From contig JADJKL010000006.1 in the NCBI GenBank assembly GCA_016706055.1, forward strand, positions 21,265-85,264: a stretch of 64,000 nucleotides of DNA, written 5' to 3'. Positions 8,903 through 55,491 of this stretch are shown in pieces. Every line of letters begins with the position of its first letter. Position 1 is the first letter of the stretch. Source of the stretch: Chitinophagaceae bacterium (GTDB taxonomy: Bacteria > Bacteroidota > Bacteroidia > Chitinophagales > Chitinophagaceae). The notes under the pieces were generated by a model. That model worked only from the letters and a program-made list of their open reading frames with translations. It was not told the origin of the DNA and ran no database searches. Position numbers and translations under genes: made by a program.

Positions 8903-11900
8903 TTACCCTTTTTTTGAAACAATCACATTTAGAAAAACTTCATTAATATCTATACTAATACCATCAATTTTAGTTGATGAAAACTCTAACTCATCAGCTA
9001 GAATTTCGGCGCAAATATAGTCTTTATACTTTGTCAATGATTCTTTTAACCCATCTGCCTCAGATACAGTCACTTTCACCCTGTCTGTTAGTTCAAAACC
9101 GCCTTCTTTGCGGATTTTTTGAATCCTGTTTACAAACTCCCTGGCATTACCTTCTGCGGCTAATTCAGGTGTTATCGTTATGTCTAAAGCAACGGTTAAA
9201 CTGCCTTTATTTGCCACTGTCCAGCCAGGAATATCTTCACTACTAATATCAACATCGGCAATCTGTAATATTACATTTTCGCCATCAACTGGCAAACTAT
9301 ATTGTCCTTCTTTTTCCAACAAAGCAATGTCATCCTGTGTGAATAATGCTAACGCTGCCGACACGGCTTTCATCTTTGCTCCGAGTTTTTTACCAAGGGC
9401 AACAAAGTTTGGTTTTATCTTTTTACTGATGAAAGTATTGTCAGGATTCAGGTATTCAATCTCCTTCACATTCACTTCGGCTTTTATCAGGTCTTCCACT
9501 TTTTGTATTTGCTGTTTCATAGAAGCAGTCATTGCCGGAATCAATACCTTTTGCAATGGCTGACGGACTTTGATGTTCACTTTTTTTCTTAATGAAAGTA
9601 TCAATGAAGATGAATCCTGTGCCAGTTGCATTCTTTCTTCTAATAAAACATCTATTACCGATTCGTCTGCTACAGGATAATCTGTATGATGAACTGATTC
9701 TACGTTGAATCTGTTGGTAACAGCATTCAAATTCTGGAAAACAGTATCACTGAAGAATGGAGAAATTGGTGCTATTAATCTGGTAATTGTTTCCAAACAT
9801 TCATATAAGGTCTGATAAGCACAAATTTTATCCTGCTCATATTCTCCTTTCCAGAACCGGCGACGGCAAAGACGAACATACCAGTTACTTAAATGTTCAT
9901 CCACAAAATCTTCAATTACACGGCCTGCTTGAGTTGGTTCGTAGTCATCCATATAAGCAGTGGCTTTCTTCACTACTGTATTTAAGGAGGAGAGAATCCA
10001 GCGGTCAATTTCAGGACGGTCTTTTAATGGTATATATTCTTCTTTGAATGCAAAGCCATCTACATTGGAATACAATGCAAAGAATTGGTACGTATTATAA
10101 AGTGTGCCAAAGAATTTGCGTTGTACTTCTTTAATACCATCAAGGTCAAACTTCATATTGTCCCAAGGAGATGCATTGGTTACGAGATACCATCTTGTTG
10201 CATCTGCACCAAAAGTTTCAATGGTGGTGAACGGGTCAACAATGTTGCCCAATCGTTTACTCATCTTTACTCCATTCTTATCCAATACGAGGCCATTTGA
10301 CACACAGGTTTTGTACGCAACACTGTCGAATAGCATTACAGCAATTGCATGTAATGTATAGAACCAACCTCTTGTCTGATCTACACCTTCGGCTATATAA
10401 TCAGCAGGGAAACTCTTTTCAAATATTTCTTTATTCTCAAAAGGGAAATGCCATTGTGCATAGGGCATAGCGCCGGAATCAAACCAAACATCAATTAAAT
10501 CAGGAACCCTTTTCATTGGTTTGCCTGACTTGCTGACTAAAATAATATCGTCAACATATGGTTTATGTAAATCTAAAATCCCTTCATGTAAATAATGCTT
10601 GTTTACATCACCGCCTAACACTTCATTTGCTTTTCTTATTCCTGCATTTAACTCTTCAATAGAGCCAATACAAACTTCTTCATCTCTTTCTTCTGTTCTC
10701 CAGATTGGTAATGGTGTTCCCCAATATCTTGAACGGCTGAGATTCCAGTCGACAACATTCTCCAGCCAGTTGCCAAAACGTCCTTCGCCGGTTGATTTAG
10801 GTTTCCAATTAATGGTTTTATTCAGCTCCACCATTCTTTCTTTTACCGCAGTGGTTTTAATGAACCATGCATCCAACGGATAATAAAGAATAGGTTTATC
10901 TGTCCGCCAACAATGCGGATAGTTGTGTTCGTATTTTTCTACTTTGAAAGCCCGGTTCTCTTTTTTCAGTTTTACACTGATGTCAACATTCACATCCACA
11001 TAGTCCGGGTCGTCTTTATAATTCTTTACATATCGGTTACTAAACTCACCAAGGCCATCAATAAACTTACCCTGCCTGTCCACCATCGTCAGAATTCCGA
11101 TATTATATTTTTTACCTACTTTATAGTCATCTGCACCAAAAGCAGGAGCAGTGTGAACGATACCAGTACCATCTTCTGTAGTAACAAATGTGTCCACCAT
11201 TACCTGGAATGGGTTTGCATCGGGAGTTATTTCTTGTATTGCTTTTAGTGAGTTGGCTTCGTAAGGAAGCAACTGCTCATATTCACAGCCTTCTATTTCC
11301 TTTCCTTTGAATTCTGCAACAACTTTATACGGAAGATTCTTACCGTCATTCTTATACTCTGCAAAGTCTGCATTCTCTTGCTCAGGTTTGAAATATTTAC
11401 CAAGCAATGCTTTTGCCAGAACAATATTTACTTCATTGTGTAAATACGGATTAATTGTTTTTACCAAAACATAATCAATGTTTGCACCAACAGTTAACCC
11501 AAGATTGGATGGCAAAGTCCAAGGTGTGGTCGTCCATGCTAGGAAGAAGACCTCACCCCGACCCTCTCCTTCAGGAGAGGGAGTCGCAGACTCTGCCAAT
11601 GCAGAAAACATTTTTTGAATGCCGGGGTTTTTGTAAGCCCCTCCTTCGGAGGGGTTTGGGGAGGCTTTGAACATCGCCACTGCACTCGTATCCTTTACAT
11701 CTTTATATGTTCCAGGTTGGTTTAGTTCATGCGAACTTAAACCTGTGCCTGCTGCTGGTGAATATGGCTGTATGCTTACACTTTCGTACAGCAATCCTTT
11801 TTTATACAATTCACTTAATATCCACCAAAGTGTTTCGATGTACTCATTCTTGAATGTGATGTATGGGTCGTTCAAATCAACCCAATAACCCATTTTCTTG

Positions 11901-12310
11901 GTGATGTCATCCCACTTGTCTTTATACCGCAACACTGCTTCACGGCATTTCTGATTATATTCTTCTACTGATATTTTTTTACCAATATCTTCTTTAGTAA
12001 TACCGAGTTCCTTTTCCACTCCAAGTTCAATCGGCAGACCATGTGTATCCCAACCGCCTTTACGTTTTACCTGAAAACCTTTCATGGTTTTGTAGCGGCA
12101 AACCAAATCCTTTAATGTCCTTGAAATAACATGGTGAATGCCGGGCATACCGTTTGCACTGGGTGGGCCTTCATAAAATACAAAAGGCGTAGCACCTTCC
12201 CGTAGGGACACACTTTTCTCAAATGCCTGTTTTTCAGACCATTTAGCCAGTATTTCCTGCTCGAAAGCTGGTAGATTTAAGCCCTTAAATTCATGGTATT
12301 TTACACTCAT
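8903..12310 (-). CDS. ileS: Isoleucine--tRNA ligase (IleRS2 type)
   Basis: FYEGPPSANGMPGIHH, GWDTHGLP, WTTTPWTLP, WNLSRSRYWGTP, KMSKR. Confidence 0.98.
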   Translation of the reverse strand: MSVKYHEFKGLNLPAFEQEILAKWSEKQAFEKSVSLREGATPFVFYEGPPSANGMPGIHHVISRTLKDLVCRYKTMKGFQVKRKGGWDTHGLPIELGVEKELGITKEDIGKKISVEEYNQKCREAVLRYKDKWDDITKKMGYWVDLNDPYITFKNEYIETLWWILSELYKKGLLYESVSIQPYSPAAGTGLSSHELNQPGTYKDVKDTSAVAMFKASPNPSEGGAYKNPGIQKMFSALAESATPSPEGEGRGEVFFLAWTTTPWTLPSNLGLTVGANIDYVLVKTINPYLHNEVNIVLAKALLGKYFKPEQENADFAEYKNDGKNLPYKVVAEFKGKEIEGCEYEQLLPYEANSLKAIQEITPDANPFQVMVDTFVTTEDGTGIVHTAPAFGADDYKVGKKYNIGILTMVDRQGKFIDGLGEFSNRYVKNYKDDPDYVDVNVDISVKLKKENRAFKVEKYEHNYPHCWRTDKPILYYPLDAWFIKTTAVKERMVELNKTINWKPKSTGEGRFGNWLENVVDWNLSRSRYWGTPLPIWRTEERDEEVCIGSIEELNAGIRKANEVLGGDVNKHYLHEGILDLHKPYVDDIILVSKSGKPMKRVPDLIDVWFDSGAMPYAQWHFPFENKEIFEKSFPADYIAEGVDQTRGWFYTLHAIAVMLFDSVAYKTCVSNGLVLDKNGVKMSKRLGNIVDPFTTIETFGADATRWYLVTNASPWDNMKFDLDGIKEVQRKFFGTLYNTYQFFALYSNVDGFAFKEEYIPLKDRPEIDRWILSSLNTVVKKATAYMDDYEPTQAGRVIEDFVDEHLSNWYVRLCRRRFWKGEYEQDKICAYQTLYECLETITRLIAPISPFFSDTVFQNLNAVTNRFNVESVHHTDYPVADESVIDVLLEERMQLAQDSSSLILSLRKKVNIKVRQPLQKVLIPAMTASMKQQIQKVEDLIKAEVNVKEIEYLNPDNTFISKKIKPNFVALGKKLGAKMKAVSAALALFTQDDIALLEKEGQYSLPVDGENVILQIADVDISSEDIPGWTVANKGSLTVALDITITPELAAEGNAREFVNRIQKIRKEGGFELTDRVKVTVSEADGLKESLTKYKDYICAEILADELEFSSTKIDGISIDINEVFLNVIVSKKG
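11551..11582 (+). repeat. REP-like GC-rich palindrome A inside ileS
   Basis: cctcaccccga-ccctctcc-ttca-ggagaggg-a; 8-bp stem. Confidence 0.8.
11635..11665 (-). repeat. REP-like GC-rich palindrome B inside ileS, inverted relative to A
   Basis: aag-cccctcc-ttc-ggagggg-tttggggaggc; reverse complement starts cctccccaaacccct, like A. Confidence 0.8.
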
Positions 12311-55452: not shown

Positions 55453-55491
55453 CAAAGATAAACCCCAACCCCTAAAGGGGCTTTATATTTG
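55453..55491. promoter_or_regulatory. Back-to-back -7 boxes for gltX (55453-55460, minus) and the deacetylase gene (55484-55491, plus)
   Basis: TATCTTTG and TATATTTG, separated by 23 nt. Confidence 0.6.
55463..55483 (+). repeat. REP-like palindrome C, a shortened member of the ileS family
   Basis: ccccaacccct-aa-aggggctt versus B reverse complement ccccaaacccct-ccgaagg-aggggctt. Confidence 0.7.

Follow-up and report, generated by a model that had tools for sequence, protein, structure and literature searches.

Introduction

Rickettsia palindromic elements (RPEs) are short palindromic repeats of 100-150 nt that lie in frame in many protein genes, including essential ones, and are translated as extra surface peptides. 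To our knowledge, RPEs have no autonomous partner. Here a partly similar arrangement is described in a 64,000-nt stretch of a Chitinophagaceae genome (GenBank assembly GCA_016706055.1, contig JADJKL010000006.1, positions 21,265 to 85,264; hereafter the window), in which ileS, the gene for isoleucyl-tRNA synthetase (IleRS), contains two GC-rich hairpins within its reading frame. These hairpins are quite probably non-autonomous end-units of a Bacteroidota-wide family of cassettes in which such hairpins bracket a DUF559 endonuclease domain, and two separate acquisitions are favoured. RPEs, which are mentioned in two papers (PMC1458961; PMC1779305), resemble these units in that insertion is in frame and preserves the frame, with copies in ileS, leuS, ribD, purH, metG, aroA, argS and mfd (names partly by eye) and a strong phase bias. 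On the other hand, they belong to another phylum and probably differ in sequence, and the present unit, of 30-50 nt, is also found at both ends of an endonuclease cassette.

Repetitive extragenic palindromic (REP) sequences, which also occur as doublets (REPINs), have a GTAG or CGTC tag at the 5' end (PMC3733652). As in the systems of REP/REPIN and the REP-associated tyrosine transposase (RAYT), a gene is flanked here by inverted hairpin repeats that are also dispersed as solo and doublet copies. However, the partner gene encodes a Vsr-like nuclease of the PD-(D/E)XK type instead of an HUH Y1 transposase, the GTAG/CGTC tag is absent, copies are few, and many of them lie in frame within coding sequence. 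Vsr-like homing endonucleases of the EDxHD type (I-Bth0305I, fractured genes) are found in group I introns or between split inteins (PMC3239194; PMC2677866). They belong to the same nuclease superfamily and are selfish and site-specific in conserved genes, although no intron or intein features were seen in the present system: DUF559 and MTES_1575 are the only Pfam domains in the insert of metH, and the cassette junctions (K/A...G/D or E) show no Cys/Ser/Thr +1 pattern. In the ShiLan-type in-frame homing insertion, an HNH endonuclease is hidden in a phage methylase gene (PMC11855218). This is likewise an endonuclease-bearing insertion, neither intein nor intron, that is free of stop codons in the host frame and adds a loop or domain to the host protein, but there the HNH is out of frame and the gene is of a phage, whereas here DUF559 is read in the frame of cellular housekeeping genes and is bracketed by hairpin repeats that are also found alone.

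The whalefall-1 RNA motif (Rfam RF01762; PMC2864571) has a UCUCUCC hairpin with AGGGUGAGGAC downstream, as in the right unit of ileS, although the spacer is 24 nt in the model and 3 nt in ileS. The Rfam match of the right unit is below threshold (19 bits against a gathering threshold of 37 bits) and is a lead only; no whalefall-1 match was found at DUF559 flanks. A description of DUF559 cassettes with hairpin ends, or of in-frame DUF559 in housekeeping genes, was not found in open-access full text, an absence that is not proof. The combination of in-frame DUF559 and hairpin end-repeats in cellular housekeeping genes occurs in none of the RPE, REP/RAYT, Vsr-like homing and ShiLan systems.

Two Hairpin Units in ileS

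The ileS product is a class I IleRS with the Pfam domains tRNA-synt_1, Anticodon_1 and DUF5915 (Table 1). Its translation at the insert reads ...AMFK-ASPNPSEGGAYKNPGIQKMFSALAESATPSPEGEGRGEVF-FLAWTTTPWT, where the peptide ASPNPSEGGAY-KNPGIQKMFSAL-AESATPSPEGEGRGEV (residues ~216-254, in frame) directly precedes FFLAWTTTPWT. On the plus strand, the right hairpin CCCTCTCC-ttca-GGAGAGGG lies at 11562-11581 with GACCTCACCCC ahead of it at 11549-11559, and the left hairpin CCCCTCC-ttc-GGAGGGG lies at 11638-11654, followed by ttt-GGGGAGGC at 11655-11665, an order of stem, loop, stem, TTT and GGGGAGGC in which the tail points outward. In gene orientation, the 117-nt insert has the form GCCTCCCC-AAA-hairpin ... 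hairpin-TC-GGGGTGAGGTC, that is, two inverted hairpin-plus-tail units with their tails outward. Both hairpins are perfect and GC-rich, in a genome of 36.6% GC, and together they are translated as residues 217-252. The first-pass annotation of this DNA had placed two GC-rich palindromes in frame before WTTTPWT, with which the coordinates and the reading of the open reading frame (ORF) agree; the pair does face each other as it said, but the spacing is 56 nt, not the ~52 nt that it gave.

Table 1. Features of ileS and hairpin units in the window (positions in the window; sequences in gene orientation).
Feature	Position	Strand	Description
ileS, type-2 isoleucyl-tRNA synthetase	8903..12310	-	1135 aa, reading frame intact; identified with Pfam; best PDB relative 8c8w (E 2.5e-249)
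Right hairpin unit	11549..11596	-	GCAGAGTCTGCGACT-CCCTCTCC-TGAA-GGAGAGGG-TC-GGGGTGAGGTC; encodes AESATPSPEGEGRGEV, residues 239-254
Middle segment	11597..11632	-	KNPGIQKMFSAL, residues 227-238; origin ambiguous
Left hairpin unit	11633..11665	-	GCCTCCCC-AAA-CCCCTCC-GAA-GGAGGGG-CTTAC; encodes (A)SPNPSEGGAY, residues 216-226
Third unit, short solo CCCCAACCCCTAAAGGGGCTTTA	55463..55485	+	Intergenic spacer; same 24 nt as in the left flank of L042, a free-standing DUF559 gene of congener G016

The open frame indicates that the insert is translated together with the enzyme, and it is presumably retained in the mature protein. The alignment to the solved IleRS2 (PDB 8c8w) is interrupted at the insert (query residues 17-217 correspond to chain residues 14-212, and 250-1122 to 213-1019), which leaves ~32 extra residues at the β-hairpin turn leading into the connective peptide 1 (CP1) editing domain. 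The insert was mapped by this alignment because the AlphaFold2 model of the whole IleRS (36-sequence alignment; mean predicted local distance difference test score 52) was too poor; it has a helix at residues 229-241 with low confidence. The middle segment between the units aligns with a helix of the ancestral loop, RNEKSEFLFKAI, and its 5' part, AAA-AAC-CCC-GGC-ATT-CAA-AAA-ATG, is also like the interior of metH and ileS cassettes after the left hairpin (CCCGGaTATCAAATG). The hairpins are not an assembly artefact, because the same segment is present in dozens of independent metagenomic IleRS. A terminator was ruled out, since no terminator-like context was found at the ileS hairpins.

DUF559 Cassettes and Their Ends

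A unit consists of an inner GAGTCT-type motif, a C/T-rich stem of 7-8 bp, a loop of 3-4 nt, the complementary stem, 2-3 nt and a G-rich tail, GGGG(T)GAGG(Y)C, and a full cassette comprises two such units, tails outward, around a Vsr-like PD-(D/E)XK endonuclease (DUF559) of ~110 aa. The cassette ends in the genus are inverted repeats of the GAGTCT-type motif, hairpin and G-tail at the DNA level; the left flanks encode (A/S)P(L/N)NPxxGG(T/A)L and the right flanks xPPxxGxxG(A/E)V. The domain of the cassette ORF is PF04480 (116 bits against a cut-off of 20.6 bits), and its closest solved relative is PDB 3hrl (E=3.6e-17). When nhmmer end models, built solely from the ends of full-length in-frame DUF559 cassettes of other genomes, with no copy from this one, were run against the whole 3.97-Mb genome, they matched the left end of the ileS insert with E=3.9e-5 and the right end with E=1.1e-5 (TGAGG-type end model). 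The left unit is nearly identical over 29-31 nt to the left ends of cinA DUF559 cassettes (L046, L048, L049), and the inner motif GAGTCTG of the right unit is common to the right ends of full cassettes. The unit pattern CCYCTCC-N2-5-GGAGRGG-N1-4-GGGG has 1-30 copies in 30 of the 41 genus genomes, and the same pattern read backwards has none in all 41. Absence of the reversed pattern and the match of the end models to both ileS ends place the ileS units beyond chance. The copy number in this genome is low, with five pattern matches and ~20 model matches.

Elsewhere in this genome, leuS has related hairpins in frame at two places and ribD has an in-frame doublet, and further in-frame copies are at the N-termini of nuoB and nuoD and within a serine-hydrolase-like gene (host names mostly by eye from translations). 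The metH and cinA genes each have a DUF559 domain of ~110 aa, read in the host frame, with the hairpins on either side, and the hairpins in the trpB-trpA spacer bracket a decayed DUF559 copy. DUF559 is present in 32 of the 41 genus genomes, and ~35 of its 83 copies (about 40%) are in open frames of at least 398 aa: metH, cinA, leuS, aroC, an adenine deaminase-like gene (named by eye) and argB, where the naming of hosts excludes L072, L073, L075 and L076. At 35 of the 40 DUF559 loci that were examined there are flanking C/T-rich hairpins (on both sides at 23), and the density of such hairpins is 2.7/kb within 300 nt of DUF559 against 0.15/kb elsewhere in the same loci (~18-fold local enrichment) and 0.026/kb genome-wide. 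The leuS site that holds a solo right unit in this genome is the site of a full cassette in G046. The DUF559 domain tree groups by host site (metH 98/89, argB 100/98, trpB-trpA), with one adenine deaminase-like copy nested among cinA copies, and this clustering indicates long residence with rare jumps.

Several of these loci have features of their own. The metH-like ORF (C5:7052-10246, 1065 aa) has its in-frame cassette before DYMGSFAVT, and a near-duplicate metH copy, decayed with stop codons, lies at C4:~294085-294456, for which strain heterogeneity or an assembly duplicate could account. In cinA (C2:370274-371590), the part upstream of the in-frame cassette is read in a different frame. The change of frame coincides with the G-run in the left hairpin and reflects either a homopolymer sequencing error or a gene that is really split. 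The nuoD (C8:138229) and nuoB (C8:139389) genes share a near-identical N-terminal extension of ~20 aa, M..E.KI.NDSSEASP(L/M)RGGLEGA, with a hairpin unit, as if the unit had brought or made the start codon. The in-frame doublet of the ribD-like gene (C3:289715-289845) encodes ~42 aa, SLNPSAGGTL...APLLEGFGGGE, and its ends match those of cinA-type cassettes (E 9e-7 and 1.6e-3). Three Y1 (IS200/RAYT-like) genes, at C3:199884-200219, C2:271250-271594 and C11:77387-77731, each have their own REP-like hairpin family, for example CAGGGCTGAAGCCCT and CTCCGTCCTTTAGGACGGAG. Long poly-G/poly-C runs at C3:~429740-429870, C6:~131200-131420 and C4:~406000-406600 look like sequencing or assembly artefacts and pollute simple scans for GC-rich hairpins.

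The stems contain no stop codon, while in some frames a stop can arise through the loop (here CTC-TCC-TGA). The frame in use yields flexible linkers rich in Pro, Ser, Gly and Glu (SPNPSxGGA; PPxEGxGEV), and internal copies show one codon phase in 18 of 20 sense and 11 of 15 antisense cases, an in-frame bias for which the first-pass annotation had proposed to look. Since the stems are free of stops and the loops sometimes are not, this phase bias mostly points to selection for benign Pro/Ser/Gly/Glu peptides.

The family extends beyond the genus. The left unit, in an exact 23-base version, is present in at least 120 stretches of species-representative genomes; among the 80 loci listed, all are of Bacteroidota except one metagenome-assembled genome of Saccharibacteria, and the carriers belong, among others, to Chitinophagaceae, Prevotella, Segatella, Dysgonomonas, Paludibacter, Flavobacteriaceae and Aequorivita. 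Many of the copies lie inside long ORFs, for example purH, metG, aroA, argS, mfd, ileS and metH (names partly by eye). The DUF559-cassette arrangement also recurs phylum-wide, with examples from restriction-modification enzymes and from another site in metH. Prevotellaceae have equal-sized inverted doublets in several genes; in L126, L136, L150 and L163, inverted pairs of identical left-type units, with starts 81 nt apart, are in frame within argS, mfd and two further genes (by eye) and look like a doublet moving as one piece.

Variation of the ileS Loop

At the position of the insert, most congeners have a 20-aa loop, AVQDEKSKFLHDAVHGDEVF, and other orders have only 8 residues. The closest relative sampled across the whole of ileS (87% identity) is without the palindromes. 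On the other hand, a region-restricted search of 5.8 billion proteins yielded dozens of IleRS from Chitinophagaceae (with Ferruginibacter, Hanamia and others as record names) that share the left unit and middle segment. At least six types of right unit are paired with this same left unit and middle: PSPxGEGRGEV, NPPLEGREA, IPLAGGGGAV, VSPFGGDLEGA, LSFGEGLGEV and VPSSEGFREAV are found, as are tandem copies and eroded forms. The same left unit is joined to another right type in G046, and a second left-unit type is found in P0071. Single units also occur: G098, of another genus, has the right unit alone in an otherwise ancestral loop (AIRNEKSDFLF-TESSQVSPLGGDLEGAS-IFFLAW), and G023 has a left unit alone, of a different type.

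The same loop holds full cassettes in IleRS of other Bacteroidota. More than 100 IleRS clusters of 1255-1547 aa, retrieved with the ileS flanks plus a DUF559 insert as query, carry PF04480, and some are titled 'isoleucyl-tRNA synthetase/very-short-patch-repair endonuclease' by their source. In P0122, P0123, P0124 and P0129, the full cassette lies between ...FK(x)K and YFLAWTTTPWT, which is the exact loop of the ileS hairpins; in other IleRS it lies before FPADFIAEG. The DNA of IleRS cassettes has hairpin units at both junctions. In L017 (ileS of the congener G006), a 197-aa insert at the same loop matches LPD3 (PF18798, E=3.4e-11), a domain that belongs to polyvalent proteins of mobile elements, and the IleRS clusters P0223, P0225 and P0230 have both LPD3 and DUF559.

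The palindromes are not destroyed by synonymous divergence. Among ileS orthologues of 68-86% protein identity, fourfold sites in the left unit are identical at 33 of 36 positions, against 33-41% gene-wide, and in matching right units at 7 of 7 and 4 of 4, while loops and adjoining codons vary. Selection, gene conversion or re-insertion preserves the palindromes. When the loop is left out of the ileS tree, the allele with the units requires nine state changes, at least six of them forced by well-supported branches, and sister sequences differ in state. Because the unit-bearing alleles share a derived middle segment and yet are patchy on the tree, the loop allele probably moves by recombination.

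Origin of the ileS Palindromes

Cassettes and solo units occupy either intergenic spacers or, in frame, the surface loops of conserved proteins, and in ileS the two units enclose a short helix of the variable β-hairpin loop ahead of the CP1 editing domain. In the scheme that is favoured here, the unit-bearing loop allele may spread by recombination or a homing-like process with the DUF559 nuclease presumably supplied in trans, and gene conversion or selection would prevent decay of the palindromes. From the occupancy patterns, two separate acquisitions are favoured, with a right unit that turns over. Units co-occur with DUF559: the unit pattern is found in 30 of 32 DUF559-positive and none of nine DUF559-negative genus genomes (Fisher p=1.6e-7). 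As the DUF559-negative genomes are small, the counts were re-examined in the 32 genomes of at least 2.5 Mb, where the unit count is correlated with the DUF559 count (rho 0.46, p 0.008) and uncorrelated with the Y1-transposase count (rho 0.04) or genome size (rho 0.24).

Several points weigh against this scheme. The co-occurrence is partly confounded, as all nine DUF559-free genomes are of 1.0-2.2 Mb. A PD-(D/E)XK nuclease alone is not a transposase and does not account for the arrival of solo units at new sites; no target-site duplication was recognised at the units and cassettes examined. Ends like terminal inverted repeats are present, as in a miniature inverted-repeat transposable element (MITE); the parent cassette encodes a nuclease and no transposase. 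The synonymous conservation is equally compatible with a host function of the RNA or DNA. KNPGIQKM after the left hairpin resembles cassette interiors (KPGYQM in metH, RPGYQT in an ileS cassette), which fits a single internally deleted cassette better, and 'left-only' alleles such as that of G021 look like decayed right units and not like empty right sites.

The last two points bear on an alternative within the same family, in which the 117 nt would be what is left of a single DUF559 cassette that entered the ileS loop and whose ORF was then removed by an internal deletion, as in a MITE or REPIN-like doublet; the right end was later altered or eroded in some lineages. The inverted ends with outward tails are exactly as in full cassettes, which the same loop holds in other IleRS; the spacer after the left hairpin, CCCGGcATTCAAaaaATG, is like that of the metH cassette (CCCGGaTATCAAATG) and of L214 (CCCGGtTATCAAA); equal-sized doublets are known from ribD in this genome and from argS, mfd and other genes in Prevotellaceae; and the whole segment acts as one allele on the ileS tree, with the state of G021 again readable as a decayed right unit. 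It is nevertheless unlikely, though not negligibly so, and was downgraded because right-only (G098) and left-only (G023) states and turnover of the right unit were found. These states, the change of unit type (the right-unit types and the second left-unit type of P0071) around a constant middle, and the likeness of that middle to the host helix (N..LF.AI) are the reasons for leaning to two units, and the one REPIN-like doublet of the first-pass annotation is probably not what is present.

The annotation had also proposed to test for association with RAYT genes. Mobilisation of REP or REPIN palindromes by RAYT (a Y1/HUH transposase), as in Proteobacteria, would account for short palindromes in inverted pairs, and this genome has three strong Y1_Tnp genes; but the hairpins that flank these genes are unrelated to the ileS units, unit counts do not follow Y1 counts in large genomes, four Y1-free genomes still have units, neither GTAG nor CGTC nor their complements are found in either ileS unit, and the few copies in the genome do not fit. 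This identity was rejected on the Y1 flanks and counts, and is the least probable of the explanations considered. Hardly more probable is a feature of the ileS mRNA or DNA selected by the host, such as a stability element or a translational pause ahead of the folding of the editing domain, with the likeness to DUF559 flanks incidental or secondary. The position at a domain boundary would suit it, as would the conservation of synonymous sites in the stems well over the gene-wide level, whereas the same units occur in many unrelated genes and spacers across the phylum, ileS of most congeners and family members is without them, the right-unit types are interchangeable, the context is not terminator-like, and the fold z-score is only -2.0. 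By contrast, the proposal in the annotation that this palindrome family flanks DUF559/Vsr-like modules is borne out by the hairpins at DUF559 loci and by the match of the ileS ends to the models of full-cassette ends. Its further suggestions also hold: other copies exist in the genome (leuS, ribD, nuoB, nuoD, metH, cinA and the trpB-trpA spacer), and palindromes are tolerated in loops of aminoacyl-tRNA synthetases (leuS, metG, argS and ileS). The ileS palindromes are best read as two end-units of the cassette family.

Implications

A wider proposal, to which slightly less than an even chance is given, is that DUF559 hairpin cassettes are a distinct and widespread class of selfish elements in Bacteroidota. 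As endonuclease genes of the homing type, they would depend on neither introns nor inteins: the hairpin ends, stop-free in the frames in use, would encode flexible linkers, and the nuclease would be carried as an internal domain of essential proteins (IleRS, LeuRS, MetH, CinA, AroC and others). Solo and doublet units would be non-autonomous footprints or landing pads that nuclease-driven gene conversion keeps intact.

If this is true, in-frame palindromic repeats would gain a candidate autonomous partner, which the RPEs of Rickettsia are not known to have, and a third way, beside introns and inteins, would be available for an endonuclease gene to reside inside essential genes. It would account for the recurrent length variation and odd Pro/Gly-rich peptides in housekeeping proteins of Bacteroidota, and for annotations that join a synthetase and a very-short-patch-repair endonuclease in one title. 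The cassettes and units would mark structurally permissive insertion sites in aminoacyl-tRNA synthetases and other enzymes, and the large DUF559 family would be given a testable function.

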